A stretch of 64,000 nucleotides of DNA, taken from assembly GCA_020057115.1 (NCBI GenBank), contig JAGVGJ010000002.1, positions 857 through 64,856 of the forward strand, written 5' to 3'. Position numbers and translations under genes: made by a program. Every line of letters begins with the position of its first letter. Positions within the stretch are counted from its first letter, which is position 1. The notes beneath the pieces are model-generated. The model made no database searches. It saw only the letters and a program-made list of their open reading frames with translations, and had not been told where the DNA came from. This DNA comes from Candidatus Omnitrophota bacterium (GTDB taxonomy: Bacteria; Omnitrophota; Gorgyraeia; 2-01-FULL-45-10). Below are positions 16,281 through 63,209 of this stretch, in pieces.

Positions 16281-16700
16281 ATGATAGCCCTGCTTTTTAA
16301 TTCAATAAGGATACCCATGGACAAGATAAAGGATAAGCTGATCGAAAGACGCCGATATATAAGGCTCGAGGTGCCGCTTAAAGTAACTTATACCATACCC
16401 GAGCTTCATAAAATATACACGGCTGTAGCCAAGAACATATCTGCGGACGGCATAAGGTTCGAGACCCACGAAAGGGCCATCAAGGAATCAAGCGTGATAG
16501 AGCTTAAGCTCGACATCCCGAACGTGGCCAGCGCCGTACATATCAAGGGGCGCGTCATATGGAAATCGAAACTTTCCTTGGAGGACAGCGCGCCGTTCGA
16601 CGTCGGCGTGGAATTCCTCGAAATAGAGGATGACAACAAGAATACCTTCCTCAAATTCCTGTGCGATCTGATCTACAGCCTGCCAGAGGATGCAAAATAA
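16281..16700 (+). CDS. PilZ-domain protein (stand-alone); the true start is probably the internal ATG near 16317.
   Basis: RRRYIRLE and NISADGIRFE motifs. Confidence 0.55.
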   Translation: MIALLFNSIRIPMDKIKDKLIERRRYIRLEVPLKVTYTIPELHKIYTAVAKNISADGIRFETHERAIKESSVIELKLDIPNVASAVHIKGRVIWKSKLSLEDSAPFDVGVEFLEIEDDNKNTFLKFLCDLIYSLPEDAK

Positions 16701-19591: not shown

Positions 19592-20626
19592 ATGCATAAA
19601 AAACCTCCGGTCAAAAAGGATTGTTCCGCCAAAGGCTGTTACAAGTATGCGCTTGCCTTAAGCGAGCACTGCTGGGGCCATCTTCCCGATAAAAATGAGT
19701 ACCGGACGGCCCTTATCAAGGCCATCGACAGCGGGCAGGACTTGAGCGGAGAGAATCTTGAAAAGGTGGATCTAAGCGGCGCGCATATTGAAAAGGCGCT
19801 CCTATCAAGGGTGAACCTCTCGCAGGCGAACCTATCTGGAACACGGCTCTTCGATTCGAAGCTTGAGAACGCCGATCTGATAGGTGCCGATCTCACGGAT
19901 TCGGATCTTTCACATTGCGATATGCATGGTAGCGACCTCACGAAAGCAACGCTCGTCCGCGCGAGGTTGTGGAATACTGACCTGATGGGCTCTAACCTCA
20001 CGGAGGCAGACCTTTCCGGAGCGGATCTCTGGAGCGCGAAGCTATACAATGCCAGGTTGTGGCATACGACTTTCGCCGGAGCGAAATCTCTCGCCAAAAA
20101 GAATTTCTCTAAAGGCTCCGGCTCGCTCTCCAAGACCGTCATGATAAACGAGAGCGGCATTTTGTCTGCAGAAGAGGCCTATCGGGACCTTAAAGGATAC
20201 TTTATCTTGAACGGCATGTATAATGACGCCAGCTGGGCCGCCTTCAGGGAGAAGGCGATGGAACGCAAGATCTTCCTGAAGAGGGGCGACCTTAACTACA
20301 TACCAAGCCTTATCATGAACCTCTTGTGCGGATACGGCGAAAAACCTTACAGGATAATAATATCCGCCTTCGGCGCCATATGCCTCTTCGCGGCGCTCTA
20401 TGCGGCGCTCGGCTCCGTCCAGAACGCCTCGTCTCCGGACTATCTGATGAAGTGGAGCGATTACTTGTATTATTCCACCATAACATTCACGACCGTAGGA
20501 TACGGCGATTTTATCCCGAAACCCGGAACGCTATACAGGCTCCTGGCGGCGACCGAAGCATTCATGGGCATCTATGTGATGGGTCTTTTCATATTCACGC
20601 TGTCGAGGAAGTACTCGGGAAGGTAG
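19592..20626 (+). CDS. Fusion of a pentapeptide-repeat domain to a two-TM K+ channel pore.
   Basis: Tandem A(D/N)LxG pentapeptide repeats at residues 60-170. Canonical selectivity filter TTVGYGD flanked by two TM helices. Cys/His-rich N-terminus. Confidence 0.65.
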   Translation: MHKKPPVKKDCSAKGCYKYALALSEHCWGHLPDKNEYRTALIKAIDSGQDLSGENLEKVDLSGAHIEKALLSRVNLSQANLSGTRLFDSKLENADLIGADLTDSDLSHCDMHGSDLTKATLVRARLWNTDLMGSNLTEADLSGADLWSAKLYNARLWHTTFAGAKSLAKKNFSKGSGSLSKTVMINESGILSAEEAYRDLKGYFILNGMYNDASWAAFREKAMERKIFLKRGDLNYIPSLIMNLLCGYGEKPYRIIISAFGAICLFAALYAALGSVQNASSPDYLMKWSDYLYYSTITFTTVGYGDFIPKPGTLYRLLAATEAFMGIYVMGLFIFTLSRKYSGR

Positions 20627-39827: not shown

Positions 39828-42397
39828 TCAGCACAGGAATAAGCGGACTGGATAAAGTCATAACCGGGCTGCAGCTCGGGGACAATGTGGTCTGGCAGAT
39901 AGACTCTATCAGCGACTATACCGAATTCGTGGACCCATTCGTAAAGAAAGCCCTTGAGGAGAACAGGCGGCTTGTCTATATACGTTTCGCCAACCACAAA
40001 CCTCTGTTAAAGAAAGAGAAGGGCATCACAGTCTATGAGCTTAATGCTACCGAAGGGTTTGAATCATTTTCCGCGCAGATAAACAGTATTGCAAAAAAAG
40101 AAGGTGAAGGGGTATTCTACGTATTCGATTGCCTCTCGGACCTTCTCTCTGCATGGTCGAATGACCTCATGATAGGCAACTTCTTTAAGATCACCTGCCC
40201 GTTCCTCTTCGAGCTGAACACAATAGCCTATTTTTCCCTCCTTCGCAACAGGCACTCATTCAAGACTGTCGCGCGTATCCGCGACACTACGCAGCTACTC
40301 ATAGATGTTTATAATTATAATGATAAATGTTATATACATCCTTTAAAAGTCTGGAACCGTTATTCTCCGACGATGTTCCTGCCGCATATCAGGACAAAAG
40401 ATGCATTCGTCCCTATCGCTAACAGCGTAGACACGGCCAAGCTCTTCTCTAACATATTCAAGAAAGGGATAAAGAGCACCGAGAGGAAGCTCGACTACTG
40501 GGACAGGCTCTTCATAGATGCCGAGGAACTGGCAAACCAAAAGGGCACGGCACGCGAAAAGAAGACAAAAATGATAGACAAGCTTTCAAGGATAGTGATA
40601 GCGCGAGACGAGAAGATGCTGGAGCTCGCAAAAGAGAATATAACGCTCGAAGATTTTCTTAATATAAAATCGAGGATGATCGGGACAGGTTTTATAGGAG
40701 GAAAATCTGTCGGCATGCTGATAGCACGCAATATCCTTTCAAAAGAAAAGTCTCTTGAGACGGAAACTCTGTTCGAGACTCACGACTCTTTCTATGTAGG
40801 TTCAGACGTATTCTACACCTACATCGTAGAGAACGGCTGGTGGAAGGCCCGCATGGAGCAGAGGACTAAAGAGGGTTACTTCGAAGTGGCTAAGACCCTC
40901 AAAGATAAGTTATTGACCGGGGTATTCCCAGAAGAGATCAAAGAGCAGTTCATGCAGATGATGGAATATTTCGGGCAATCCCCGATCATAGTCCGCTCAT
41001 CGAGCCTCCTCGAAGACAGCTATGGCAATGCCTTTGCCGGAAAATACGAGAGCGTATTCCTTGCAAACCAGGGGACGCCCGAACAGAGGTACTCGAAATT
41101 CGTGGATGCCATACGCCGGATATACGCTTCAACGATGAATGAGGATGCCCTTGTGTACCGCCTGCAGCGCGGCCTCGACCAGATGGATGAGCAGATGGCG
41201 CTCCTCGTGCAGCGCGTTTCGGGATCCTATCATAAGGATTATTTCTTCCCCGATGTCGCAGGTGTGGGCATATCCTCAAATATCTATGTCTGGAAAAACA
41301 CCCTGGACCCGAAGGCGGGGATGTTGCGCCTGGTCGCAGGACTCGGCACAAGAGCGGTCGACCGGGTTGAAGGGGATTACCCCAGGATCGTGGCCCTCGA
41401 CGATCCGCTCCTTAAGGCTCACGCCGGCATAAAGAGCATCCAGAGATTCTCCCAGCATGAAGTGGATGTTATAAATGTTAGAGAGAATGCATTCCAGACC
41501 ATATCATTAAGAGAGCTCTTGATGGAGAATGTCGACATGAAACTCGACCTCATAGGGACCAAAGACGAGGAAGCGACCGAAAAGCTGCGCGAGATGGATG
41601 TGGATGAAGAGTCCTGGATAATAACATTTGACGAGCTGCTTTCGAAAACGGATTTTTCACAGACCATGCGCAAGATCTTACGGACCCTTGAGTCGGCTTA
41701 CGGATATCCTATCGACATAGAATTTACAGTCAATTTTAAGACGGGCGGTGCATTCCAGATAAACCTCGTCCAGTGCCGTCCAATGCAGACAAGAGGATTG
41801 GGGCGCAGGGTGAGCATGCCTAAGACCGTATCAAAAGACAAGACGATATTCCAGTCGACCGGTAATTTCCTGGGAGGCAACATATCTCAGGCGATCGACA
41901 GGATAATCTATGTAGACCCCAAGGCATACTGCAGCCTGGCCACTCAATCCGAGAGATATGACATAGCCAGACTGGTCGGGATGCTGAACAGGCAGATAGA
42001 GTCCAAGGAAAAGATGTCGGTCATGGTGCTAGGGCCCGGCCGGTGGGGGACAACCACGCCTTCTTTAGGCGTGCCGGTATCCTTCGCGGAGATAAATAAC
42101 ATAACGGTGCTTGGCGAGATCGCGTTCGCCACGGTCAATGCCGCGCCTGAGATATCATTCGGCACGCACTTCTTCCAGGACCTTGTCGAGACAGGCATCT
42201 TCTATATTGCATTGTATCCCGATGACCGGAGCGCATTCACAAACCAGAAGTTCTTCGATTCCATGCCCAAAGGCCTCAAAGAGCTCGTGCCGCAATACAG
42301 CAAGTACGAGGATGTCGTAAAGGTGCTGGACGTCAAAGGAAAAGGCTTAAAGATCGTATCTGATATAGTGTCTCAGAAAGCTATTTGCTATTTCTGA
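39824..42397 (+). CDS. Large multidomain protein: degenerate KaiC/RecA-like N-terminus, a PPDK_N (PEP synthase / pyruvate phosphate dikinase nucleotide-binding) ATP-grasp domain, and a C-terminal domain of unknown function.
   Basis: GISGLDKVITGLQLGD has no Walker A. Then IGGKSVGML, VRSSSLLEDSYGNAFAGKYESV, and LVQCRP at the end of the PPDK_N-type domain. Confidence 0.5.
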   Translation: MISTGISGLDKVITGLQLGDNVVWQIDSISDYTEFVDPFVKKALEENRRLVYIRFANHKPLLKKEKGITVYELNATEGFESFSAQINSIAKKEGEGVFYVFDCLSDLLSAWSNDLMIGNFFKITCPFLFELNTIAYFSLLRNRHSFKTVARIRDTTQLLIDVYNYNDKCYIHPLKVWNRYSPTMFLPHIRTKDAFVPIANSVDTAKLFSNIFKKGIKSTERKLDYWDRLFIDAEELANQKGTAREKKTKMIDKLSRIVIARDEKMLELAKENITLEDFLNIKSRMIGTGFIGGKSVGMLIARNILSKEKSLETETLFETHDSFYVGSDVFYTYIVENGWWKARMEQRTKEGYFEVAKTLKDKLLTGVFPEEIKEQFMQMMEYFGQSPIIVRSSSLLEDSYGNAFAGKYESVFLANQGTPEQRYSKFVDAIRRIYASTMNEDALVYRLQRGLDQMDEQMALLVQRVSGSYHKDYFFPDVAGVGISSNIYVWKNTLDPKAGMLRLVAGLGTRAVDRVEGDYPRIVALDDPLLKAHAGIKSIQRFSQHEVDVINVRENAFQTISLRELLMENVDMKLDLIGTKDEEATEKLREMDVDEESWIITFDELLSKTDFSQTMRKILRTLESAYGYPIDIEFTVNFKTGGAFQINLVQCRPMQTRGLGRRVSMPKTVSKDKTIFQSTGNFLGGNISQAIDRIIYVDPKAYCSLATQSERYDIARLVGMLNRQIESKEKMSVMVLGPGRWGTTTPSLGVPVSFAEINNITVLGEIAFATVNAAPEISFGTHFFQDLVETGIFYIALYPDDRSAFTNQKFFDSMPKGLKELVPQYSKYEDVVKVLDVKGKGLKIVSDIVSQKAICYF

Positions 42398-42419
42398 TAC
42401 GCAGCAAGGTCGGGAAAAT

Positions 42420-42500
42420 ATGGATATTCTTTTTATAGGGATCATTGCGATTCTGGCAATGATCTCTTTTGCCTTTATAGCGCTATGCGCCAAGCTATGA
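42420..42500 (+). CDS. Tiny hydrophobic ORF (about 26 aa, MDILFIGIIAILAMISFAFIALCAKL) in the kdp leader; coordinates are accurate to +/-1.
   Basis: Single predicted TM helix. Not in the ORF track, which has a length cutoff. Confidence 0.2.
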   Translation: MDILFIGIIAILAMISFAFIALCAKL

Positions 42501-42514
42501 GCGGAGACACGCCA

Positions 42515-42606
42515 TGACAATGATATACTGGATCGGCGGCACAATTTCTCTTCTTCTATTTATCTATCTCTTGATAGCCCTTCTTAAGCCGGAGATATTC
42601 TCATGA
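42515..42606 (+). pseudogene. kdpF: kdpF-like gene with an apparent -1 frameshift.
   Basis: ATG ACA ATG ... GGC GG then a frame change. The downstream frame encodes TISLLLFIYLLIALLKPEIFS and ends with TGA overlapping the kdpA ATG (ATGA). An intact reading would need one extra nucleotide after GGCGG. Confidence 0.4.
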
Positions 42607-44339
42607 ACTGGAGCAATCTCACCCAGGCCTCCATCTACATCATAACCATACTAGTCTTCGTCAAGCCTCTTGGTATGTATATGGCCAGGATATATGAAGG
42701 CAAGCCTGCGGGCATGAATGTTTGGCTGGGATGGATAGAGAGGGTCATCTATCGCCTGTCAGGGGTAAACCCTGAACAAGAGATGACCTGGAGGGCATAT
42801 GCCGTTGCTGCGATGATCTTTAATTTTTTTGGCATAATTACCGTATATGCTATCCAGCGTCTTCAGGTATTCCTTCCTTTAAACCCGATGTCGATACCTG
42901 CCGTGGCACCGGACCTAGCATTCAACACGGCTGTCAGCTTTGCCACAAATACGAACTGGCAGAGTTATGGCGGCGAGACAACATTAAGTTATTTTACCCA
43001 GATGCTCGGATTAACGGTCCAGAACTTTGTGTCGGCAGCGACAGGCATGGCTGTGCTCGCAGCATTGATCAGAGGTTTTATCCAAAAACAGTCAGACAGA
43101 ATAGGAAATTTCTGGGTTGATCTGGTCAGATCAACGCTCTATATTTTATTACCGCTATCAATACTCTTGTCCATCATATTAGTTTCGCAAGGCGTGGTGC
43201 AGACGTTCAAGCCATATGAAAAAGTGGCTATGGTCCAGCCGATAAATAATAATGGAACGGCCGCCCAGGAGCAGGTAATTGCGTTAGGCCCGGCCGCTTC
43301 ACAGATAGCTATTAAACAATTGGGGACAAATGGCGGCGGTTTTTTTAATACAAATTCTTCACACCCATTCGAAAACCCGACGCCTCTATCCAACTTCTTA
43401 GAGGTCATCGCCATTCTTTTGATACCGGCCGCCCTATGTTATACATTCGGCTGCATGGTCAAAGACAAACGCCAGGGATGGGCGCTATTGGCTGTAATGC
43501 TCATAATATTCATACCGTGCCTGTGGAGTTCGATGCACTTTGAGCAAAAGGGAAACCCATTATTTGATCGGCTAGGCATCGACCAAAAAGCATCCGCTTT
43601 CCAGCCGGGCGGCAATATGGAAGGGAAAGAGGCCCGTTTCGGTATAGCAAATTCCGCCATATGGGCTGCAGCGACAACAGCCGCTTCGAATGGCTCTGTC
43701 AACTCAATGCATGATTCTTTCATGCCCCTGGGTGGATTGGTACCAATGTGGCTCATGCAGTTGGGCGAGGTCATATTTGGCGGAGTGGGCTCCGGACTTT
43801 ACGGACTGCTCGCATTTGTGATCGTTGCCGTATTCATAGCAGGCCTCATGATAGGCCGCACTCCGGAATATCTGGGCAAAAAGATAGAATCGTATGAGAT
43901 GAAGATGGCCGCTCTTGTACTCCTAATCCCGCACATGCTTGTGCTTGCCGGAACCGCCATATCTGTTATTTTACCCCAGGCACGGCAGGCGATATTGAAC
44001 CTTGGCGCGCATGGCCTGAGTGAAGTGCTTTATGCTTTTTCATCCGCAGGCAACAATAACGGGAGCGCGTTCGCCGGCCTTTCGACGAACAATATCTATT
44101 ATAATATCGCGCTAGGGCTTGCCATGTTCTTCTCCAGATACTGGCTTATCATCCCGACCCTTGCCATCGCCGGGTCGCTTTCGAAGAAGAAGATCGTGCC
44201 TGTGAGCCAGGGGACTCTACCAACGCATACGCCGCTCTTCGTCATATTTCTTGTAATGGTCGTTCTCATTGTCGGCGCCCTGACATTCTTTCCGGCATTG
44301 GCGCTGGGGCCCATAGCTGAACATCTAATGCTCCATTAG
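42603..44339 (+). CDS. kdpA: Potassium-transporting ATPase subunit A.
   Basis: 578-aa polytopic protein. KdpA selectivity-filter-like GGG repeats. Confidence 0.9.
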   Translation: MNWSNLTQASIYIITILVFVKPLGMYMARIYEGKPAGMNVWLGWIERVIYRLSGVNPEQEMTWRAYAVAAMIFNFFGIITVYAIQRLQVFLPLNPMSIPAVAPDLAFNTAVSFATNTNWQSYGGETTLSYFTQMLGLTVQNFVSAATGMAVLAALIRGFIQKQSDRIGNFWVDLVRSTLYILLPLSILLSIILVSQGVVQTFKPYEKVAMVQPINNNGTAAQEQVIALGPAASQIAIKQLGTNGGGFFNTNSSHPFENPTPLSNFLEVIAILLIPAALCYTFGCMVKDKRQGWALLAVMLIIFIPCLWSSMHFEQKGNPLFDRLGIDQKASAFQPGGNMEGKEARFGIANSAIWAAATTAASNGSVNSMHDSFMPLGGLVPMWLMQLGEVIFGGVGSGLYGLLAFVIVAVFIAGLMIGRTPEYLGKKIESYEMKMAALVLLIPHMLVLAGTAISVILPQARQAILNLGAHGLSEVLYAFSSAGNNNGSAFAGLSTNNIYYNIALGLAMFFSRYWLIIPTLAIAGSLSKKKIVPVSQGTLPTHTPLFVIFLVMVVLIVGALTFFPALALGPIAEHLMLH

Positions 44340-44354: not shown

Positions 44355-46433
44355 ATGAAGACATCACATAAAAAAAGATCGTTATTTGACCTGGCAATAG
44401 TCGGGCCGGCTGTCATCGATTCTTTAAAAAAGCTGGATCCCAGGCACCAGATCAAGAATCCAGTGATGTTCGTTGTCCTGATAGGGAGCATACTGACTAC
44501 GGGACTGTATATCCAGGCTGTGCTAGGCCAGGGAGAGGCGCCGGCAGATTTTATTCTCGCTATCTCATTATGGTTATGGTTCACTCTGATCTTCGCCAAC
44601 TTCGCCGAAGCCATGGCTGAAGGCCGCGGAAAGGCGCAAGCGGCAAGCCTCCGGCGCGCCCGGAAAGACACTCCGGCAAAGAAACTCTCAAGCCCAAAAT
44701 ATGGGTCGGATTTTAAAACTGTTTCCGCTACAACTCTCAAGAAGGGTGATGTCGTTCTGGTAGAAGCCGGAGACGCGATCCCCATGGACGGTGAGGCAAT
44801 AGAAGGCATAGCCTCTGTCGATGAAAGCGCTATCACCGGCGAGAGCGCACCTGTAATACGCGAATCAGGCGGTGACCGCAGCTCTGTTACGGGCGGGACA
44901 AGGGTGCTTTCAGACTGGCTTGTCATACGCATCAGTTCCAATCCCGGCGAGACATTTCTCGACCGCATGATCGCCATGGTCGAAGGCGCCAAACGCCGAA
45001 AGACCCCCAACGAGATCGCTCTAAGTATTTTATTGGCAGTGTTCACCATAATATTTCTTTTAGCTACGGTAACATTATTACCCCTCTCGATATATAGCGT
45101 TTCGGCAGCCGGCCACGGAGCGCCGATCACGGTTACTGTGCTGGTGGCTTTACTCGTATGCCTTATCCCTACGACTATCGGAGGGCTGCTTCCCGCGATA
45201 GGCATCGCGGGCATGGACAGGATGATCCAGGCCAATGTCATAGCCACATCCGGTCGTGCCGTTGAGGCGGCAGGGGATGTGGATGTCCTGTTACTCGACA
45301 AAACCGGTACGATAACTCTAGGGAACAGGCAGGCTGTATCTTTTATACCGTCCAAGGATGTAAGCGTTGGATCGCTGGCAGATGCGGCGCAGCTCTCTTC
45401 GCTATCTGACGAAACGCCCGAGGGGAGAAGCATCGTGGTTTTAGCAAAAGAAAAATACGGAATAAGAGGCCGCCACATCCATGAGCTCGAAGCAAAATTC
45501 ATCCCATTTACCGCCCAGACGCGCATGAGCGGTGTAGACCTGGGCGACGGCAGACAAATAAGAAAAGGCTCGGTTGACGCTATCGAAGATTACGTGAAAG
45601 CGCTAGGTGGTTCCTTCCCTGAAGATTTAAAGGCAAGCATTGAATCGATAGCCAAGTCCGGCGGCACGCCGCTTGTCGTAGCAGAACACAAGAACGTGCT
45701 TGGTGTCGTACAGTTAAAGGATATCGTAAAGGGCGGCATAAAGGAACGGTTTGCGGAGCTGCGCCGTATGGGAATAAAGACCGTCATGATAACAGGGGAT
45801 AATCCTTTAACTGCCGCGGCCATTGCCGCCGAAGCGGGTATGGATGATTTTCTGGCCAAGGCTACGCCTGAAACGAAGCTTAAGCTTATCCGTGAAATGC
45901 AATCCGGGGGCAGGCTCGTAGCAATGACGGGAGACGGGACCAATGACGCGCCGGCTCTCGCGCAAGCTGATGTCGCGGTTGCCATGAACACCGGCACGCA
46001 GCCTGCTAAAGAGGCAGGCAATATGGTAGACCTTGATTCAAACCCTACAAAACTTATCGAGATCGTAGAGATAGGCAAGCAGCTTCTCATGACACGCGGT
46101 TCATTGACAACATTCAGCATCGCCAATGACATATCTAAATACTTTGCCATCATACCGGCGGCATTTGTAGGAATCTATCCAGCATTGGGAGCGCTTAATA
46201 TCATGCACCTGGCGACACCGGAAAGCGCCGTATTATCGGCGGTTATCTTCAACGCGCTCGTAATTATTTTTCTCATCCCGCTCGCCCTGCGCGGCGTGCC
46301 ATATAAACCGATGCCGGCGAACCGCCTTCTGAAAGACAACCTGTTGATATATGGGGTCGGAGGGATAGTTGCGCCATTTATAGGCATTAAATTGATCGAC
46401 ATGATCTTGGTGGCATTGCATTTAGTCAGATAA
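44355..46433 (+). CDS. kdpB: Potassium-transporting P-type ATPase subunit B.
   Basis: DKTGTIT phosphorylation motif, TGDN and [10 protein letters not shown] motifs. Confidence 0.9.
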
Positions 46434-46441
46434 GGAGAAAC

Positions 46442-47017
46442 ATGCTAAGAGGGCATATCAGACCGGCGATCTTGATATTCTTGATCCTGACCGTTATTAC
46501 AGGGATCCTTTACCCGATGTTCATCACCTGGGTCGCTCAAGCATTTTTTCATTCCCAGGCTAACGGCAGCTTGATATACCGCGATGGAAAACCGACAGGA
46601 TCGGCTCTTATTGGCCAGCAGTTCGATGACCCAAAATATTTATGGGGACGCATATCTGCAACATCGACGGTGCCATATAATTCCGCCTCCTCAGCCGGTT
46701 CGAATCTAGGCCCTTCGAATCCGGCGCTTGTGAATAATTTAAAAGCGCGAATAACGGTCTTAAGATCCTCTGATCCGGACAACAATCTGCCGATCCCCGT
46801 AGACCTCGTCACTTCGTCGGCAAGCGGGCTCGACCCGCATATAAGCCGAGCAGCCGGCTATTACCAGATAAGGCGCATAGCAAGGACAAGAGGCATGCCG
46901 GAAGAGGCTATAAAACATATCATAGATCGCAATACAACCGGCCGTCTTTTCGGTTTGATGGGTGAGTCGGTAGTCAATGTATTAAAGGTAAATATAGATT
47001 TGGATTCTCACAAATAA
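46442..47017 (+). CDS. kdpC: Potassium-transporting ATPase subunit C.
   Basis: 191 aa, N-terminal TM helix, KdpC family core. Confidence 0.85.
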   Translation: MLRGHIRPAILIFLILTVITGILYPMFITWVAQAFFHSQANGSLIYRDGKPTGSALIGQQFDDPKYLWGRISATSTVPYNSASSAGSNLGPSNPALVNNLKARITVLRSSDPDNNLPIPVDLVTSSASGLDPHISRAAGYYQIRRIARTRGMPEEAIKHIIDRNTTGRLFGLMGESVVNVLKVNIDLDSHK

Positions 47018-47034
47018 TAGAGTATATTATACAC

Positions 47035-49233
47035 ATGGTTGATGAAAGATCGGACATAGGGGCTATATTGGCGAAAGTAAAGACCGAGGAACCCAACCGC
47101 GGTAAATTGAAGATCTTCTTTGGCGCCATGGCCGGGGTCGGCAAGACCTACACCATGCTCGAGGCAGCCAGGGCCCAGAAGAAAGAGGGCGTCGACGTCG
47201 TTGCCGGATACGTTGAAACCCATAAACGCGCTGAAACAGATGCCCTCTTGGAAGGCCTTGAGATACTACCTAGAAAAAATATCGTATATAAAGGCGTGGA
47301 TATCAGCGAATTCGATATAGATCTCGCTTTAAAGAGACATCCCGCCATAATATTGGTAGACGAGCTGGCCCATTCGAATGCCCCTGACTCCCGTAATTTA
47401 AAACGCTGGCAAGATGTCGAAGAACTGCTCGAGGCGGGCATCGACGTCTACACCACTTTAAATGTCCAGCATTGTGAAAGCATAAACGACGTAGTGGCGC
47501 AGATCACCGGCATAACGGTTCGCGAAACTGTCCCCGATACGTTCATAGAAAAGGCTGACGACATAGAGTTGGTAGACCTTCCGCCCGAAGACCTTTTAAA
47601 GCGTCTTAAGGAAGGCAGGGTGTACCTGGGAGATCAGGCTGAGCGCGCTATCCAAAATTTCTTCCAGATAGGCAATCTCATCGCATTAAGGCAGCTGGCG
47701 CTGCAATATACTTCGCGCCTTGTGGACGCCAATATGCGTACCTATAAACAGACCTATTCGGTATCGAAGGTCTGGAACGTGCGTGACCGATTCCTGGTAA
47801 GCATCAGCCCGTCGCCGCACGCCATAAACCTGATAAGAGCGGGAAAGCGTATAGCGTCGGGCCTGGGCGTAGAATGGATCGTGGTAAACGTAGAAACTCC
47901 TTCCTACACATACAACAAAAAGGATAGGGCTCGGGTAGCCGAGATGATGCGCTTTGCAGAAGAGCTTGGGGCCGAGACCATTACTTTGACCGGCCAGGAT
48001 GTCGCGGAGAGCTTGGTCTCTTATGCACGTTCGCGGAACATCACAAAGATCATAGCAGGGAAGCCCGGGAAACCCCGATGGCATGAGCTGCTATTCGGCT
48101 CAACCGTCAATGGGCTTGCCCGCAAATGTGGCGAAATAGACCTGTACCTTATAAGCGGAGAAGCGCACGGAGATCCTGTAAAATTCGAGCTGCGTCTGTC
48201 AAAACCATTTCCGTGGAAAAGCCTGTTATCGACCGTCATAACGGTCGCGCTCTGCAGCATAATCGGAAGGATATTATCCCGTTACCTGGGCCCGGAAAAC
48301 GTGGTCATGATGTATCTGCTGGGAGTGGTGTGGATCGCTTATAGATATGGCCTCAGGGCATCTGTCATAGCCTCATTCCTCAGCGTCCTCGCCTTCGATT
48401 ATTTTTTTGTGCTGCCTTATTTTACTTTTGTGGTAGCGGATGTCAAAAAAGACCTGGTCACATTTGTGGTCATGTTGATCGTAGGCATCACGATAAGCGT
48501 TCTAACGGGACGGCTCAGGCAGCAGGCCATCTCCATGCGACTGCGCGAAAGCAGGACACAGGCCCTTTACCAGTTAAGCAGGGACCTTGCCAAAAGCTCC
48601 GATCCAAAAGAACTATTCCAGGTAGCGGCCATGCATATACAGAAATTTTTTAAATGCCGGAGCGCTATATTTTCACCCGACAAAAAAGGAAAGATAGAGA
48701 TATTTTTTGATAACTCAAAGGGCACGGCACTCATGGAAAATGAACAGGCTGTAGCCCAATGGGTGTACGAGCACAAGAAGATGGCTGGCAAAGATACGGA
48801 CACGCTGCCGGGGTCTAGAGGCCTCTATCTGCCACTTGCGGGGTCAGAAAAGACCGTGGGCGTTATCGGCATATTCCCGCATGAAGATAAACAGTTTACG
48901 GATCCTGAGCATTTGCACATGCTCGAGATGTTCGTAAATCAGACTGCATTGGCGGTAGAGGGAGCCCAGCTTGCCGCCGCGACCGTAAAGGCAGAGACCG
49001 AGGTCGAGAACGAGCGCCTTCGGAACATGCTATTAAGCACATTTTCTTTCGACATTCCGGCCCCGTTAACAGCTATCTCTGAGGCAGCCGCAAGCCTGTT
49101 AATACCGGAAAACGCGCATGACCCGGCAAAACGCGATAAACTGATACGGAAGATACGGGCTGAAGCAGAACGCTTAAATGGCCTGGCCGCAGAAATGACC
49201 AAGATCATCACTTCGAAAGAAGACCTTGGCTGA
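47035..49233 (+). CDS. kdpD: KdpD-like sensor lacking a functional histidine kinase. Domains: KdpD-N, USP, 4TM, GAF, and a degenerate H-box with no HATPase_c.
   Basis: N-terminal Walker A GAMAGVGKTYTM. The H-box reads STFSFDIPAPLTAI where SHDLRTPL is expected. The protein ends about 90 aa later. No kdpE follows. Confidence 0.7.
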   Translation: MVDERSDIGAILAKVKTEEPNRGKLKIFFGAMAGVGKTYTMLEAARAQKKEGVDVVAGYVETHKRAETDALLEGLEILPRKNIVYKGVDISEFDIDLALKRHPAIILVDELAHSNAPDSRNLKRWQDVEELLEAGIDVYTTLNVQHCESINDVVAQITGITVRETVPDTFIEKADDIELVDLPPEDLLKRLKEGRVYLGDQAERAIQNFFQIGNLIALRQLALQYTSRLVDANMRTYKQTYSVSKVWNVRDRFLVSISPSPHAINLIRAGKRIASGLGVEWIVVNVETPSYTYNKKDRARVAEMMRFAEELGAETITLTGQDVAESLVSYARSRNITKIIAGKPGKPRWHELLFGSTVNGLARKCGEIDLYLISGEAHGDPVKFELRLSKPFPWKSLLSTVITVALCSIIGRILSRYLGPENVVMMYLLGVVWIAYRYGLRASVIASFLSVLAFDYFFVLPYFTFVVADVKKDLVTFVVMLIVGITISVLTGRLRQQAISMRLRESRTQALYQLSRDLAKSSDPKELFQVAAMHIQKFFKCRSAIFSPDKKGKIEIFFDNSKGTALMENEQAVAQWVYEHKKMAGKDTDTLPGSRGLYLPLAGSEKTVGVIGIFPHEDKQFTDPEHLHMLEMFVNQTALAVEGAQLAAATVKAETEVENERLRNMLLSTFSFDIPAPLTAISEAAASLLIPENAHDPAKRDKLIRKIRAEAERLNGLAAEMTKIITSKEDLG

Positions 49234-49266: not shown

Positions 49267-49294
49267 TTGACAAATAATATTACCCTAATATAAT
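49267..49294 (+). promoter_or_regulatory. Sigma70-type promoter (TTGACA-N16-TATAAT) for the atp operon.
   Basis: Read from the sequence. Confidence 0.5.
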
Positions 49295-58286: not shown

Positions 58287-58592
58287 TTGAGGCCGAAAAA
58301 GACTAGATCCATAAGCTGCATGCCGGGAGAACGGTGCTTTAAGCCGCTCTGCAAACCATTAAATAAAGTAGAGTCGGTATTTCTAACCCTGGACGAATTT
58401 GAAGCATTGAGGCTTGCTGATCTTGAAGAGATGAAGCAGGTAGATGCGGCAAAAATGCTTAATATCTCAAGGCCGACATTCTCGCGCATCGTAGGGTCAG
58501 CGCGTAAAAAGATAGCGGACGGCCTGGTCAACATCAAGGCCATAAGGATCGAGGGCGGCTGCTGCAAGATCTCAAGGAGAGTAAGGCGATGA
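58287..58592 (+). CDS. DUF134/UPF0251 family putative DNA-binding protein, TTG start.
   Basis: N-terminal Cys-rich motif (CMPGERCFKP), LTLDEFEALRLADLEEM..ISRPTFSRI..ARKKIADGLVNIKAIRIEGG. Confidence 0.55.
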   Translation: MRPKKTRSISCMPGERCFKPLCKPLNKVESVFLTLDEFEALRLADLEEMKQVDAAKMLNISRPTFSRIVGSARKKIADGLVNIKAIRIEGGCCKISRRVRR

Positions 58593-59761
58593 AAGAATGG
58601 AAGAAATTTCTTTATGTTGTCGCGATATTCTTAGGTTGTTTCTATCTGCCTGTCGAAAACCTGCGGTTCTCCAATGCTATCTTTGAGGCGCTTGCCCTCG
58701 TAAAGTGGTATGCCCGGGAGCATGTATTATTATGCCTTGTCCCGGCATTTTTTATTGCCGGAGCCATATCCGTATTTGTAAGCCAGGCGTCGATCATAAA
58801 ATATTTCGGCGCCAAGGCGAACAAAGTCCTTTCTTACAGTGTTGCCTCCATATCCGGAACCATCCTGGCGGTCTGTTCCTGCACGGTTTTGCCTTTATTC
58901 TCCGGTATATATAAAAGAGGTGCCGGGCTTGGGCCTGCGATAGCTTTCCTTTATTCAGGACCTGCTATCAATGTCCTTGCCATCATCCTTACCGCGCGCA
59001 TCCTTGGCTGGCAGCTTGGACTGGCAAGGGCGATAGGCGCGATTGTATTTAGCGTAGTGATAGGGCTCGCCATGCACCTCATATTCTTAAAAGGGGAGAG
59101 GGAGCGTCATGTTAATGGCAACTTCGACATAGAAGATGTAAAAGAAGCGCGCCCTCTGGGTAAGACCGCCGCCTACTTCACATCCCTTGTCGCGATACTT
59201 GTATTTGCGAACTGGGGCAAGCCACTCGAAGGCGATCACGGTCTATGGAGCTTGATATATGCGCTTAAATGGTGGATCACAGGTTTTTCCTTCGCCGGCC
59301 TCATCATCATGCTGTTCAAATGGTTCAAAAAAGATGAATTAAAAGAGTGGGCCGCGGTTTCATGGGGATTTGCCTTACAGATACTGCCGCTTTTACTCGG
59401 CGGCGTACTCGTCTCCGGATTCCTGCTAGGCAGGGTCGGGCATGAAGGGATAATACCTTCAAGGTTCATTACGATGCTTGTCGGCGGAAACTCATTATGG
59501 GCGAACTTTTTCTCGTCGATCGTGGCGGCATTCATGTATTTTGCAACACTGACCGAAGTACCCATACTTCAAGGGCTGATGAACTCAGGTATGGGTAAAG
59601 GGCCTGCCTTAGCGCTTCTTCTTGCGGGGCCTGCGTTAAGCCTTCCAAGCATGCTGGTCCTCCGCAGTATCATTGGGACAAAAAAAACTGTCGTCTATGT
59701 AAGCCTGGTAATCATCATGGCTACGATCAGCGGGATGTTCTTTGGGTGGATCGTTAAATAA
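58589..59761 (+). CDS. DUF318 (YraQ-like) permease.
   Basis: CSCTVLPLF...GAGLGPAIAFLYSGPAINV is the DUF318 hallmark. About 10 TM helices. Confidence 0.6.
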   Translation: MKEWKKFLYVVAIFLGCFYLPVENLRFSNAIFEALALVKWYAREHVLLCLVPAFFIAGAISVFVSQASIIKYFGAKANKVLSYSVASISGTILAVCSCTVLPLFSGIYKRGAGLGPAIAFLYSGPAINVLAIILTARILGWQLGLARAIGAIVFSVVIGLAMHLIFLKGERERHVNGNFDIEDVKEARPLGKTAAYFTSLVAILVFANWGKPLEGDHGLWSLIYALKWWITGFSFAGLIIMLFKWFKKDELKEWAAVSWGFALQILPLLLGGVLVSGFLLGRVGHEGIIPSRFITMLVGGNSLWANFFSSIVAAFMYFATLTEVPILQGLMNSGMGKGPALALLLAGPALSLPSMLVLRSIIGTKKTVVYVSLVIIMATISGMFFGWIVK

Positions 59762-60548
59762 AACAGGGGAGCATATGAAGAAAAAAGAAAAAGTTATCAA
59801 ACAGCATGTAAAAGAAGGCTATGCAAAGATAGCGCTACAAGGAGGCTCGTGTTGTCCTGGATCATCTTGTTGCGGAAGCTCAAGCCTTGCTCAAGATATA
59901 AGCAAGGCCGTTGGCTACACCGACCGAGAGATGAAGACTGTTCCTGAAGGAGCCAATCTGGGCCTTGGCTGCGGAAACCCGGTCGCGATCGCTTCCTTAA
60001 AAGAAGGCGAAACGGTCCTTGATCTGGGCGCCGGCGCGGGGTTTGATGCATTTTTGGCTGCCGCCAAAGTAGGTAAAAGCGGGAAAGTGATCGGCGTAGA
60101 TATGACCCCCGAAATGATCGACCGTGCCAGAAAAAACGCCCTTAAAGCCGACTACGCCAATGTAGAATTTAAATTAGGCGATATAGAGAATTTGCCCATA
60201 GAAGATAATTCTATTGATGTGGTCATATCAAATTGCGTTATCAATCTTTCGCCTGACAAGAAACGAGCATTCAAGGAAGCATTCCGTGTCTTGAAGTCCG
60301 GTGGAAGGCTCATGGTGTCGGACCTGGTTCTTATGAAAGACTTACCTGATGTTACAAAGAGATCGATCGAGGCTTATGTGGGTTGCATTGCCGGCGCCTC
60401 CGGGAGAGAGGATTATATCAATTTTATCAAGGAAGCTGGTTTTAAAGATATAAAAATTATAAGCCAGGATAAATATCCTGTCGAAGCCGTGGCTGATACT
60501 TCGGCCGTGGTAAGCGTCAAGATATATGCTATTAAACCCGAGGATTAA
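59742..60548 (+). CDS. arsM: Arsenite S-adenosylmethionine methyltransferase.
   Basis: SAM motif VLDLGAGAGFD. Conserved Cys positions: N-terminal CC pairs, NCVINL, GCIAGA. Confidence 0.7.
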   Translation: MGGSLNKTGEHMKKKEKVIKQHVKEGYAKIALQGGSCCPGSSCCGSSSLAQDISKAVGYTDREMKTVPEGANLGLGCGNPVAIASLKEGETVLDLGAGAGFDAFLAAAKVGKSGKVIGVDMTPEMIDRARKNALKADYANVEFKLGDIENLPIEDNSIDVVISNCVINLSPDKKRAFKEAFRVLKSGGRLMVSDLVLMKDLPDVTKRSIEAYVGCIAGASGREDYINFIKEAGFKDIKIISQDKYPVEAVADTSAVVSVKIYAIKPED

Positions 60549-60557
60549 AGGAGATAT

Positions 60558-60794
60558 ATGAAAATTGAGATCCTGGGTATGGGATGCCCGAAATGCAAAA
60601 AGTTATATGAAAATGCTCAGACCGCTGCGAAAGAGCTGAATATCGCGGCAGATATCGTTAAAGTAGCTGACATCGACAAGATCACCGGATACGGCGTAAT
60701 GATGACGCCTGCCTTGGCTATTGACGGTACAGTTGTTTCATCTGGCAAATTGTTGAACAAAGACGAGATAATCAAGATCATCTCTAAGCGTTAA
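60558..60794 (+). CDS. Small thioredoxin-fold redox-active disulfide protein.
   Basis: 78 aa with a GCPKC CxxC motif. This type of protein commonly accompanies DUF318 permeases. Confidence 0.6.
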   Translation: MKIEILGMGCPKCKKLYENAQTAAKELNIAADIVKVADIDKITGYGVMMTPALAIDGTVVSSGKLLNKDEIIKIISKR

Positions 60795-60803
60795 GGAGCT
60801 CTT

Positions 60804-61238
60804 ATGCGTAAAAAACTTTTTACATTACTTTTATCGGTTCTGCTATTGTGCGGTTTCGCGCTGCCGGTGCGCTCAGGCCAAGGCGCAGACGCAAAACCCC
60901 AGAATAAGGTTATCGCCTATTATTTCCACGGCGATTTCCGATGCCCTACATGCTTCAAGATGGAGCAACACTCGAGGGGGGCTGTGGAAAAATATTTTAA
61001 AGATGAACTGGCTTCCGGGAAAGTAGTATTCAGCGCGGTAAATACGGACGAAAAAGCGAATAAGCATTTCGTGCGCGACTACGGACTTTATGCGAAATCC
61101 CTCATAATATCCCTGGTTAAGGACGGAAAGGAAGTCAGATCAAAGAACCTTACTAAGATATGGGAATATGCCTGGGATGAACGGGAATTCTACGATTATG
61201 TCAAAACGGAAGTTGAAAGCTATTTGAAAGAACTTTAA
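60804..61238 (+). CDS. Secreted CxxC (CPTC) thioredoxin-like protein.
   Basis: Signal peptide plus a CPTC motif. Confidence 0.4.
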   Translation: MRKKLFTLLLSVLLLCGFALPVRSGQGADAKPQNKVIAYYFHGDFRCPTCFKMEQHSRGAVEKYFKDELASGKVVFSAVNTDEKANKHFVRDYGLYAKSLIISLVKDGKEVRSKNLTKIWEYAWDEREFYDYVKTEVESYLKEL

Positions 61239-61924
61239 TGGATAATCTGCTGGTAGGCATCCTCTCCGCGCTATGGCTTGGCATATTGACGTCGATAAGC
61301 CCGTGCCCTTTAGCCACTAATATAGCCGCGATCTCATTTATATCAAAAAAGATAATTCACCCCAAAATGGTATTTATTTCAGGCCTTGCTTATACCCTAG
61401 GCAGGATGGCATCCTACGCGCTGTTAGGCTTTATCATCATAGGCTCGCTTTTAAGCGTACCGGCAGCAGCAAATTTCCTGCAGAAATACATGAACAAGGC
61501 GATAGGCCCTATGCTGATATTCACGGGTCTCTTCTTGCTGGACATTATTAAATTTAGCATACCTGCTTTTTCGCTCTCCGAAAGACATCATCATAAACTC
61601 GCCGAATCAGGTGCGGGCGGAGCATTTCTATTAGGACTGATATTCGCCCTGACCTTCTGCCCGATCTCAGCTGCGCTATTTTTTGGCAGCTTAATACCGC
61701 TTGCGCTTAATCATAAATTGGGGGCGATATTACCGTTTATATACGGTTTTGGAACAGGCTTACCGGTTTTGCTATTCGCCGTTTTGATAGCCCTTGGAGT
61801 GGCATCGCTTAAGCATTGGTTCCATCGCCTGACAAGACTGGAATATTACACGAAAAAGATCACTGGTGCTATCTTTATAGCGGTTGGAATATATTACATT
61901 TTCTCATATTTGATATATCTCTAG
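61238..61924 (+). CDS. DsbD/CcdA-like thiol-disulfide transfer membrane protein.
   Basis: SISPCPLATN motif in TM1. Six or seven TM helices. Confidence 0.4.
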   Translation: MDNLLVGILSALWLGILTSISPCPLATNIAAISFISKKIIHPKMVFISGLAYTLGRMASYALLGFIIIGSLLSVPAAANFLQKYMNKAIGPMLIFTGLFLLDIIKFSIPAFSLSERHHHKLAESGAGGAFLLGLIFALTFCPISAALFFGSLIPLALNHKLGAILPFIYGFGTGLPVLLFAVLIALGVASLKHWFHRLTRLEYYTKKITGAIFIAVGIYYIFSYLIYL

Positions 61925-61951
61925 TAGACCGGAAAGGAGCCGATCTGCCTT

Positions 61952-62116
61952 ATGGAAGAAGAGAAGGAAACTATTGCATTAAGCAAAGAACAGATATTTG
62001 AGCTTGTCCAGATAGTTTTTGATAATGACAAAGACGCTGCTTTAAAGTTCCTGGAGTATAATATATACAAACCTATTCAAAGACGAAAAGAAGCTAAATG
62101 TAAAAAAGAAGTTTAG
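61952..62116 (+). CDS. Small hypothetical ORF (54 aa) with an RBS.
   Basis: GGAAAGGAG RBS about 12 nt upstream. Not in the ORF track because of the length cutoff. No homology recognised. Confidence 0.25.
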   Translation: MEEEKETIALSKEQIFELVQIVFDNDKDAALKFLEYNIYKPIQRRKEAKCKKEV

Positions 62117-62138
62117 GAATAATTCAAGAGGTGGATAA

Positions 62139-63209
62139 ATGCAATATACCAAACACGAAGCATCGGAATTAAAACGTGAACTATCTTTATTGGACAAACT
62201 CCTTACGCCTCTTATATTCATTGCGATGGGGGTGGGAATAGCTTTAGGATATTTTGCCCCAGGCGCAACCAAGGTCATAGCTGACATGCAGGTCGGCACG
62301 ACCTCCATACCGATAGCCATCGGTCTTATCCTCATGATGTATCCGCCGCTCGCGAAGGTGAAATACGAAGAGATAGGGAAGGTATTCAATAAGCCGAAAC
62401 TGCTGATCCTTTCCCTTGTGCAGAACTGGATAGTCGGGCCCGTCGTAATGTTTATTCTGGCCATCATATTTCTTCGGCATTATCCTGAATATATGATAGG
62501 CGTTATCCTGGTGGGACTCGCCAGGTGTATCGCAATGGTCATAGTCTGGAATGAGCTTGCCGAAGGCGACAGGGAATTTGCCATAGGGCTCGTGGCATTT
62601 AACGCGGTATTTCAAGTCCTATTTTACGCGGCATACATCTATATATTCATCACAGTCGGACTTAACTGGCTAGGGCTGGTTAAAGGCCTGAACCTGAATA
62701 TTTCCATGGTCGAAGCCGCCAAGACCGTCTTTTTCTACTTAGGGATACCATTCCTTGCAGGAGTTATCACCCGCGTCAGCCTGATGAAGCTAAAAGGGAA
62801 GGTGTGGTATGAGGATATTTTCATCCCGAAGATAAGCCCGATCACGCTCATCGCGCTTTTATTTACCATCATCGTCATGTTCTCGCTTAAAGGGCAATAT
62901 ATCATACAGCAGCCTTTTGATGTCGTAAGGATCGCCATCCCGCTTGCCATATATTTCTTCCTGATGTGGTTCGCGACATTCTTCATCGCCAGAAAGATGG
63001 GTATTAATTATGCGCAGACAACCGCAACCTCCTTCACCGCGGCAAGCAATGATTTCGAGCTCGCGATAGCGGTCGCTGTCGCTATCTTCGGGATCAGCTC
63101 TAACCAGGCATTTGCGACTGTCGTCGGGCCGTTGATAGAAGTCCCGGCGCTCATCATTCTTGTAAACGTCGCTTTGAGATTCAAGAGGGGCGGCCTTTGG
63201 AAAAGATAA
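62139..63209 (+). CDS. acr3: Arsenite efflux transporter, ACR3 family.
   Basis: MMYPPLAKV and [13 protein letters not shown] motifs. Ten TM helices. Confidence 0.85.

Follow-up and report, generated by a model that had tools for sequence, protein, structure and literature searches.

A conserved KdpD lacking histidine-kinase output in Candidatus Omnitrophota is probably a serine-kinase regulator of the KdpFABC potassium pump

The N-terminal domain of KdpD is an atypical serine kinase, and KdpFABC is inhibited through the phosphorylation of Ser162 of KdpB (Silberberg et al., 2024, Nat Commun 15:3223, PMC11018627). Phosphorylation of KdpB S162 was obtained with purified Escherichia coli KdpD and also with its residues 1-230 alone; the activity needs the Walker A motif, W39/R190 and D109/E110, and it is stimulated by K+ in a lipid environment (PMC11018627). 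In the same study, KdpD versions without histidine-kinase domains were found predominantly in species lacking KdpE. One of them, the 'Truncated DHpCA domain' class, was recorded in 61 of 5495 species, 54 of which have no KdpE, and was reported mainly in Campylobacterota and Archaea (PMC11018627). Proteins of this class contain KdpD-N, Usp, TM and GAF domains but have no histidine-kinase activity, their genes follow kdpABC, and their proposed sole role is the post-translational inhibition of KdpFABC via KdpB S162 phosphorylation.

Other departures from the canonical KdpD have also been described. The short KdpD, which consists of KdpD-N and Usp only, occurs in Deinococcus geothermalis, cyanobacteria, Bacteroidota and the Bacillus cereus group; it is a soluble protein without TM and GAF domains and receives c-di-AMP input via its USP domain or via a ydaO riboswitch. 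The serine kinase of the D. geothermalis protein is stimulated by c-di-AMP (PMC11018627), and in the Bacillus thuringiensis type the kdp operon is controlled by a c-di-AMP (ydaO) riboswitch (PMC6488665). Split KdpD systems are known in Deinococcus, Anabaena and Alicyclobacillus and are common in Acidobacteriota and Chloroflexota (PMC11018627). Finally, a rare class designated 'Full length, Mutated catalytic His' has lost the acceptor histidine (PMC11018627).

Here we describe a kdp locus from Candidatus Omnitrophota, located within a 64-kb window (the whole stretch of DNA analysed), in which the last gene of the kdpFABC operon encodes a KdpD without a kinase transmitter. The features of the locus are as follows.

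42514-42606, plus strand: kdpF, encoding the small subunit of the K+ pump (30 aa); the operon's first recognisable gene (Pfam Potass_KdpF, E 2.9e-8)
42603-44339, plus strand: kdpA, the K+-conducting subunit (Pfam KdpA, E 3e-248)
44355-46433, plus strand: kdpB, P-type ATPase subunit, presumably the substrate of the serine kinase (Pfam E1-E2_ATPase and Hydrolase)
44844-44846, plus strand: codon of KdpB Ser164 in the TGES motif; its E. coli counterpart, S162, is the site of inhibitory phosphorylation
46442-47017, plus strand: kdpC (Pfam KdpC, E 7e-71)
47035-49233, plus strand: kinase-less kdpD, 732 aa with an ATG start, last gene of the kdpFABC operon
47098-47718, plus strand: KdpD N-terminal P-loop domain, residues 22-228 (Pfam, E 6e-95; PDB 2r8r, E 3e-75)
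47122-47148, plus strand: Walker A of KdpD-N, G30-T38 (GAMAGVGKT), at the identical position to that of E. coli KdpD
47359-47364, plus strand: Walker B of KdpD-N, D109/E110 (VDEL), also at the identical position to that of E. coli KdpD
47791-48129, plus strand: USP domain, residues 253-365 (Pfam Usp, E 3.5e-6)
48229-48534, plus strand: TM block of four helices (DUF4118), residues 399-500 (Pfam, E 4.5e-28; PDB 2ksf, E 3.5e-14)
48601-48960, plus strand: GAF domain, residues 523-642 (Pfam GAF_3, E 6.5e-10; PDB 4qpr, E 1.2e-15)
48982-49212, plus strand: His-less DHp remnant, residues ~650-726 (BLASTP, family columns, hhalign and AlphaFold2 helices)
49267-49294, plus strand: candidate sigma-70-like promoter TTGACA-16-TATAAT (12/12 consensus match only)

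The kdpF ORF overlaps the start of kdpA, and the order of kdp(F)ABC followed by a kinase-less kdpD was conserved in the loci of relatives (P0020, P0070 and P0004). Upstream of the operon lies a gltBD-nadE block, and nitrogen-regulation genes, two of them P-II genes, form a block adjoining the operon. Downstream, the Pfam matches bore out the first-pass annotation, which had placed atpZ rather than a response regulator 3' of kdpD: the next genes are an atpZ-like gene (ATPase_gene1) and atpB. The candidate promoter is situated between the kdpD stop and the atpZ-like gene and, as a consensus match only, putatively separates the kdp unit from the atp operon that begins there.

The 732-aa protein shares 45% identity with E. 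coli K-12 KdpD (b0695) over residues 16-681 in BLASTP. The Pfam and PDB matches revealed the canonical KdpD order of KdpD-N, Usp, four TM helices and GAF, and the sensor domains matched the E. coli KdpD structures 2ksf (TM block) and 4qpr (GAF). An AlphaFold2 model, which was of moderate quality (mean pLDDT 69, pTM 0.37), placed helices in the TM region at residues 394-414, 420-438, 440-454 and 470-518. Neither HisKA nor HATPase_c was matched by Pfam in this protein. The domains read from the sequence beforehand (KdpD-N with Walker A, USP, 4-TM and GAF, with HATPase_c missing) were thus correctly listed.

The N-terminal domain retains the catalytic apparatus of the serine kinase. BLASTP alignment showed that R190 and the motif G30-x4-GKT38 are positioned exactly as in E. 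coli KdpD, and G30, K37, T38, D109, E110 and R190 were invariant in every family sequence covering them (120 sequences, one of which is N-terminally truncated). The adenine-coordinating pair of E. coli, W39/R190, is represented here by Y39/R190; 117 of the family sequences have Y at position 39, and two have F. This is a conservative aromatic change, and Y is also present in the Pseudomonas syringae structure 2r8r. On the substrate side, KdpB shares 70% identity with E. coli KdpB over the full length in BLASTP, and its E163 and S164 are found in the sequence ITGESAPV, with E163 corresponding to E161 of E. coli KdpB. KdpB from six related loci also carries the TGES motif. All of the residues on which the atypical serine-kinase activity of E. 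coli KdpD depends are kept in the N-terminal P-loop domain, with Y39 in place of W39. The suggestion of the first-pass annotation that the protein may act directly on KdpFABC gains support from the published KdpB S162 serine kinase (PMC11018627), together with the conservation of both the catalytic residues and the target serine at this locus.

The histidine-kinase output, by contrast with E. coli KdpD, has been lost. In the BLASTP alignment, TFSFDIPAPLTAI of the 732-aa KdpD is aligned with ALSHDLRTPLTVL of E. coli KdpD, so that F672 (codon 49048-49050) takes the place of the phospho-acceptor H673. An H-box without the phospho-acceptor histidine had been proposed for this gene, and the alignment agrees; the protein, however, ends 60 residues after F672 and not about 90 as had been estimated. 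Comparison of the family C-terminus with the canonical KdpD DHp and CA domains by hhalign gave a probability of 98.5% (E 4e-15), with coverage restricted to residues 651-724 of E. coli KdpD, that is, positions 3-76 of the 246 template positions. HisKA was the best Pfam match of the last 75 aa, at a sub-threshold E of 0.0097, and the AlphaFold2 model placed C-terminal helices at residues 624-672, 675-688 and 697-726. These profile and model data indicate that the last 60 residues are not junk but form a His-less DHp helical hairpin. The sequence terminates at the expected start of the CA domain, the family end lying at about residue 729 of E. coli KdpD. Since none of the 120 family members has an acceptor histidine and the CA domain is absent, this protein cannot support a His-Asp phosphorelay, as the earlier reading had held.

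The same architecture, with a length of 724-733 aa, was found in at least 120 protein clusters among the matches listed, mostly from Candidatus Omnitrophota. Neither HisKA nor HATPase_c occurs in any of the 120 homolog clusters listed (62-76% identity); 119 have lengths of 724-735 aa, and the remaining one is partial (681 aa). The common end point corresponds to E. coli KdpD positions 727-731 in 105 of the 120 sequences (mode 729), while the other 15 end points are C-terminal alignment artefacts. An assembly or frameshift artefact as the cause of the short KdpD was ruled out because homologs lacking both kinase domains fall into the same length class and share the same end throughout the listed clusters. 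The column of E. coli H673 is occupied by S (60), L (21), Y (19), M (12) or F (4) and never by His, and it is among the most variable of the family H-box. In the DHp region, the positions conserved in at least 95% of the family include E660, R661, T669, S671, L674, P677, L678, I681, L688, L703 and E720. Across a 47-sequence family alignment, 120 residues were invariant, with a mean column identity of 75%. The Omnitrophota-type family forms a separate 50%-identity cluster, and its next relatives are full-length kinases with 44-48% identity.

Compared with E. coli KdpD, the Omnitrophota protein has the same domain order, the serine-kinase catalytic residues (with W39 changed to Y39), an E. coli-type USP motif and the TM and GAF domains, but differs in carrying F672 in place of H673, in lacking the CA domain (~730-894) and in having no downstream kdpE. 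It resembles the 'Truncated DHpCA domain' class in domain content, in the loss of histidine-kinase activity, in gene position after kdpABC and in the associated absence of KdpE. In contrast to that survey, which has no entry from Candidatus Omnitrophota (PMC11018627), the present family derives from this phylum. It keeps a complete and conserved His-less DHp hairpin and has lost exactly the CA domain; many other truncated lineages, unlike this family, end right after GAF at ~650-670 aa. With the short KdpD it has in common the missing kinase, a gene that closes the kdp operon and a conserved serine-kinase domain, but it differs in having TM and GAF domains, in lacking the c-di-AMP motif and in having no riboswitch detected in the window. 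The 'Full length, Mutated catalytic His' proteins, identified here from a MAFFT alignment of 150 representatives with fast settings, share the loss of the acceptor histidine within an otherwise preserved H-box but, unlike the 732-aa KdpD, retain a CA domain in which the N and G boxes are intact. These His-less, CA-bearing full-length KdpDs could be evolutionary intermediates towards the 732-aa form. The novelty implied by the first-pass annotation does not hold, as kinase-less KdpD proteins were already catalogued as a class in 2024 (PMC11018627). The kinase-less KdpD is a phylum-wide Omnitrophota addition to the known serine-kinase-only class and reveals no new kind of system.

On the basis of sequence comparison and analogy, we propose that the 732-aa KdpD is probably a membrane-anchored, K+-sensing regulator whose only output is the serine kinase and which acts as a direct post-translational off-switch of KdpFABC. 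When K+ is sufficient, the TM/GAF sensor would activate the KdpD N-terminal domain, which would transfer the gamma-phosphate of ATP directly onto KdpB S164, and the phosphorylated S164 would lock KdpFABC in the inhibited state. The His-less DHp hairpin would be retained as a coiled coil that mediates dimerisation and relays the signal from the sensor to the serine kinase. Transcription of kdpFABC-kdpD would be independent of KdpD/KdpE, and may be constitutive, may result from read-through from the upstream gltBD-nadE block, or may depend on some other regulator. The serine-kinase activity, the K+ dependence and the role of DHp in this proposal are based on residue conservation and on experiments with the E. 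coli and D. geothermalis proteins.

The conservation of the hairpin also allows a different, though improbable, reading, namely that the protein is a pseudo-kinase scaffold whose functional output is the His-less DHp hairpin itself, docking a partner and regulating by binding rather than by phosphorylation. The DHp domain is the usual docking surface of response regulators, and the remnant here is conserved beyond what a passive tail would show, with only the former histidine position free to vary. Such conservation seems to exceed the need of a mere linker, and an additional partner may exist. The partners proposed under this low-probability reading are an orphan response regulator, a heterodimerising kinase, a PtsN- or P-II-like regulator, or KdpB itself. 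PtsN reportedly acts on the KdpD transmitter domain, a result credited to Mörk-Mörkenstein and co-workers in 2017, and the two P-II genes in the adjoining block also favour this reading. However, no candidate partner is conserved beside the kinase-less kdpD, and dimerisation alone could explain the conservation of a coiled-coil hairpin. Moreover, the N-terminal ATP-binding and catalytic residues are fully conserved, which argues that catalysis, and not mere binding, has been maintained. It is similarly doubtful that the hairpin serves as a new output or input surface that docks KdpB or a nitrogen- or PTS-type regulator, adding to or replacing serine phosphorylation. If this were true, the Omnitrophota proteins would be K+-sensing pseudo-histidine-kinases and would control the pump through protein-protein contact, and the His-less, CA-containing full-length KdpDs would represent evolutionary intermediates in this change of signalling logic.

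A split system, in which transcriptional control comes from a separate histidine kinase (TM/GAF/DHpCA or of another type) and a KdpE encoded elsewhere in the genome and the kinase-less kdpD supplies the serine-kinase half only, is likewise unlikely. Such arrangements are documented, and among Elusimicrobia-type and some GAF-terminated relatives, six loci (L013, L016, L034, L096, L112 and L115) contained both a KdpE-like regulator and a further kinase. In the known cases, however, the serine-kinase chain consists of KdpD and Usp only and the TM and GAF domains reside on the kinase chain, whereas here they reside on the kinase-less chain. When used as phmmer queries, E. coli KdpE, the KdpE receiver domain alone and residues 660-894 of KdpD (the transmitter) returned nothing at E <= 10 among the 545 six-frame ORFs of the window. 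Furthermore, a response regulator or histidine kinase was present in the flanks (up to 10 kb on each side) of none of the 13 Omnitrophota-type loci; among 98 loci whose KdpD is full-length and His-bearing, 92 had a KdpE-like regulator. It is on this difference that we judge a kinase and KdpE elsewhere in the genome to be unlikely. The absence of KdpE from most published 'Truncated DHpCA' species (54 of the 61 given above) points in the same direction. One Omnitrophota relative (L010) does have a PAS-HisKA-HATPase_c kinase just downstream of kdpD, but this candidate for the missing half was rejected, being an unrelated soluble PAS kinase seen in a single locus and located beside a frameshifted kdpD.

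Slightly less probable again is that the serine kinase, or KdpFABC regulator, is steered by a USP-bound nucleotide second messenger such as c-di-AMP and not by K+ sensed through the TM and GAF domains. Action through USP-bound c-di-AMP had been put forward in the first-pass annotation, and the stimulation of the short D. geothermalis KdpD serine kinase by c-di-AMP speaks for such an input. The c-di-AMP motif of the KdpD USP domain of Staphylococcus aureus is SXS-X20-FTAXY, in which S244 and Y271 are required for binding (PMC4686210). The corresponding residues here read SPS-X20-WIVVN. The SXS half is kept (S258-P-S260), as in most family members, which also favours the c-di-AMP reading, but N285 replaces the Y271 needed for binding, and in place of FTAXY this protein has WIVVN and the family consensus WIVAY. 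Alignment to the S. aureus KdpD USP structure 7ji4 and the family column counts instead gave the motif R268-AGK-R272-X8-W281-IVVN, and the family consensus RAGKR-X8-WIVAY fits the non-binding E. coli type RXXXR-X8-WXAVY, found in homologs without the S. aureus c-di-AMP motif. A c-di-AMP-binding USP of the S. aureus type was accordingly rejected, and the earlier suggestion with it. In addition, no diadenylate cyclase (DAC domain) was present among the Pfam-scanned ORFs of the window, and no ydaO/c-di-AMP riboswitch matched at the Rfam gathering score within it; permissive Rfam filters applied to the kdp leader (41900-42700) yielded noise only (E > 1) and no ydaO riboswitch. The retained TM and GAF sensing domains also weigh against this reading, since with them no outsourced sensor is needed.

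The weakest alternative, a functionless kdpD decaying into a pseudogene, might appeal to the loss of the catalytic histidine and CA domain and to the frameshift in the one relative L010, but appears effectively refuted by the intact ORF of ~725 aa with its common end point across the at least 120 clusters of 62-76% identity, by the invariant residues and mean column identity of the 47-sequence alignment, and by the conserved last position in the kdp operon.

In NCBI and JGI, proteins of this family carry the name 'sensor histidine kinase KdpD', which is an annotation error, as they are incapable of a histidine-kinase role. The serine-kinase-only KdpD class now extends to the uncultured phylum Omnitrophota, where the form is fixed in at least 120 sequence clusters. 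The family represents a clean natural dissection of KdpD: the CA domain and the acceptor histidine have been lost, and selection has maintained the sensor, the serine kinase and the DHp stalk. It thereby offers a convenient natural minimal construct for the coupling of TM/GAF K+ sensing to the N-terminal serine kinase, free of the histidine-kinase/phosphatase cycle.

The open reading frame at 47035-49233 (+) encodes a 732-aa KdpD, and kdpF, kdpA, kdpB and kdpC lie directly upstream on the same strand. Pfam searches assigned the domains listed here to the protein and returned no match to HisKA or HATPase_c.

Features of kdpF and of the KdpD protein
42514-42606, +: kdpF (Pfam Potass_KdpF, E 3e-8)
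residues 22-228: KdpD N-terminal domain (Pfam, E 6e-95)
residues 253-365: Usp domain (Pfam)
residues 399-500: DUF4118, four-helix membrane block (Pfam)
residues 523-642: GAF_3 (Pfam)

The N-terminal domain, the TM block and the GAF domain also resembled the solved structures 2r8r (E 3e-75), 2ksf and 4qpr (the E. coli KdpD GAF domain), respectively, in agreement with the sensory regions (KdpD-N, USP, TM and GAF) that the first-pass annotation had recognized. BLASTP against E. coli K-12 KdpD (45% identity, residues 16-681) aligned TFSFDIPAPLTAI of the window protein with ALSHDLRTPLTVL of E. coli KdpD, which placed F672 at the position of the phospho-acceptor H673. The protein ends 60 residues beyond F672. 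Thus, the first-pass annotation was right that the H-box lacks its histidine and that no HATPase_c domain follows, and made a minor numerical error in counting about 90 aa from the H-box to the end. A 12/12 match to the sigma-70 consensus (TTGACA-16-TATAAT, 49267-49294, +; a sequence match only) lies 34 nt past the kdpD stop, ahead of atpZ/atpI/atpB, and is followed by an atpZ-like gene and atpB. When the 545 six-frame ORFs of the window were searched with phmmer, no match at E <= 10 came up for E. coli KdpE, for its receiver domain alone or for the KdpD transmitter (660-894), consistent with the earlier remark that atpZ rather than a response regulator comes next. Since the domain search, the H673 alignment and the phmmer result all agree, the kinase-less KdpD is confirmed.

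A search of 5.8 billion proteins yielded at least 120 homologous clusters with 62-76% identity. Among the 120 listed, whose named sources were Candidatus Omnitrophota plus one Sedimentisphaerales, 119 were 724-735 aa long and one was partial (681 aa); the Pfam set was identical in all, with HisKA or HATPase_c in none. When the sequences were aligned with E. coli KdpD (MAFFT), the position of H673 was occupied by S (60), L (21), Y (19), M (12) or F (4), and never by His. The end point fell at E. coli positions 727-731 (mode 729), the end of DHp helix 2, in 105 of the 120 listed sequences, the other 15 appearing to end at position 894 only because their C-termini were misaligned. The shared Pfam set and end point across the listed clusters ruled out an artefactual truncation. 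Functionally, the family is misannotated in public records as 'sensor histidine kinase KdpD'. Among 50%-identity representatives, an exhaustive search recovered the family as a single cluster (P0079), and because the next matches were full-length KdpDs of about 900 aa (44-48% identity over query residues 4-723), the family looks derived from full-length KdpD.

The last 85 residues of the window protein are a DHp domain minus its histidine, as indicated by hhalign, Pfam, the AlphaFold2 helices and column counts. The family C-terminus matched 107 canonical KdpD DHp+CA regions with a probability of 98.5% (E 4e-15, hhalign), the match covering only E. coli 651-724 and leaving the CA part unaligned, and the best Pfam match of the tail was a sub-threshold HisKA (E 0.0097). 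The AlphaFold2 model, of moderate quality (mean pLDDT 69; 72-89 in blocks 670-720), predicted a long helix out of the GAF domain (624-672), a kink at a conserved D-x-P, a helix at 675-688 and a return helix at 697-726. In the family, E660, R661, N664, L667, T669, F670, S671, L674, P677, L678, I681, S682, L688, L689, L703, E710, L714, L717 and E720 all reach 93% conservation or more, and the position of the lost His is among the most variable H-box columns. By these counts, the hairpin is under strong purifying selection.

E. coli KdpD, and also its residues 1-230 alone, directly phosphorylates S162 in the TGES motif of KdpB, which inhibits KdpFABC when K+ is high; the activity, that of an atypical serine kinase, requires Walker A, the W39/R190 adenine pair and Walker B D109/E110, is assisted by KdpB E161, and is stimulated by K+ with KdpD in a lipid environment (PMC11018627). 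The window protein keeps, in E. coli numbering, G30-x4-G36-K37-T38, D109, E110 and R190, with the aromatic Y39 for W39. These residues are unaltered in all family sequences covering them, position 39 being Y in 117 and F in 2. The window KdpB (70% identity to that of E. coli) retains ITGES, its E163/S164 corresponding to E. coli E161/S162, as do the KdpBs of 6 relatives. The earlier suggestion that the protein acts on KdpFABC directly therefore finds support in conserved residues on both partners, and is probably right. The serine-kinase residues are conserved and the kinase output is lost in the window protein, and the best-supported mechanism is a post-translational off-switch via KdpB S164. 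We infer that K+ would be read by the TM/GAF sensor, that the N-terminal domain would be catalytically active and transfer ATP phosphate to S164, turning the pump off, and that the DHp hairpin would keep the dimer and signalling helix intact; there would be no transcriptional output.

The first-pass annotation had also proposed control by a USP-bound nucleotide such as c-di-AMP, which is unlikely. The S. aureus motif is SXS-X20-FTAXY, with S244 and Y271 needed for binding (PMC4686210), whereas the window protein, in an alignment with the S. aureus USP structure 7ji4, has SPS-X20-WIVVN and thus lacks the FTAXY half. Moreover, the family consensus R-AGK-R-X8-W-I-V-A-Y is of the E. coli type (RXXXR-X8-WXAVY), and no ydaO riboswitch was detectable in the window with Rfam. 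That the protein is instead a pseudo-kinase scaffold using its conserved DHp surface we consider quite improbable. A split system, with kinase and KdpE encoded elsewhere in the genome, is opposed by the 165 related loci classified from genomes and metagenomes: a KdpE-like regulator accompanies 92 of the 98 full-length His-bearing KdpDs for which 1.5 kb or more of sequence downstream was available, whereas none of the 13 Omnitrophota-type loci (725-730 aa KdpD) has a response regulator or histidine kinase within flanks of up to 10 kb per side. It is likewise opposed by the published survey, in which 54 of 61 'Truncated DHpCA' species lack KdpE (PMC11018627). Finally, the idea that kdpD is a decaying relic is refuted by the conservation of the family.

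Upstream of kdpD, kdp(F)ABC is constant in the relatives, and the downstream neighbours vary (smpB, a Mem_trans gene, Mrp/Nuo-like antiporter genes, atpZ). In one Omnitrophota MAG (fen_1320, locus L010:30-3438), the kdpD homologue is split by a frameshift into ORFs 30-1742 and 1756-2121 and followed by a soluble PAS-HisKA-HATPase_c kinase absent from other relatives.

Further features of the window were recorded.

Other features of the window
10748-11122, 13386-13748 and 16281-16700, +: three stand-alone PilZ-domain proteins (c-di-GMP receptor fold) within 6 kb
19592-20626, +: 344-aa protein, N-terminal pentapeptide repeats fused with a C-terminal Ion_trans_2 K+-channel pore
21624-42397, +: nitrogen-assimilation block (GAF-ANTAR regulator, glutamine-dependent NAD synthase, two Amt/P-II pairs, type III glutamine synthetase, gltB, gltD, nadE, PPDK_N-domain protein)
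42420-42500, +: 26-aa, almost wholly hydrophobic ORF MDILFIGIIAILAMISFAFIALCAKL
58589-63209, +: arsenic-resistance-like cluster (ArsP_1-family permease, ArsM-like SAM-dependent methyltransferase, SBF/Acr3-like transporter)

The 26-aa ORF, without a match in Pfam, separates the PPDK_N-like gene, which stops at 42397, from kdpF, which begins at 42514; it may either encode another small membrane peptide of Kdp or have arisen by chance. The long nitrogen block directly precedes the kdp operon, leaving only 22 nt to the small ORF; no terminator was found, and gltBD is also just upstream of kdp in the closest relative (L005/L006). Nitrogen block and kdp may be co-transcribed, with a physiological link between K+ and glutamate. 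As a channel, the pentapeptide-repeat fusion has an unusual architecture, and its gene shares the window with those of the Kdp pump.

Silberberg et al. (2024) classified KdpDs across 5495 species, with no entry for Omnitrophota (PMC11018627). Their 'Truncated DHpCA domain' class comprises 61 species, mostly from Campylobacterota and Archaea, and their class 'Full length, Mutated catalytic His' is rare. The latter class was seen independently here: of 118 full-length representative clusters, about 10 have a non-His H-box, and the CA domain was intact in all but one of those checked. Eight such homologues from outside the window (P0126, P0128, P0164, P0186, P0214, P0217, P0218 and P0251; 880-962 aa) have N, R, K, S, D, F or Q in place of the H-box His, together with an HATPase_c in which the N and G boxes are recognizable. 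These His-less, CA-bearing proteins may be intermediates toward the CA-less form. Another architectural variant is found in the Elusimicrobia-type loci L016, L034 and L096, whose KdpDs (about 815-819 aa) match the query only as far as about residue 658 and differ in the C-terminal extension that follows; these loci also encode a KdpE-like regulator and, separately, a kinase. Many other truncated lineages in this data set stop just after the GAF domain (about 650-670 aa), whereas in the window family the CA domain is precisely excised and a conserved His-less DHp is kept. The kinase-less KdpD has been a published phenomenon since 2024 (PMC11018627); the window gene belongs to this known truncated class, and what is new is its phylum-wide membership in Omnitrophota.
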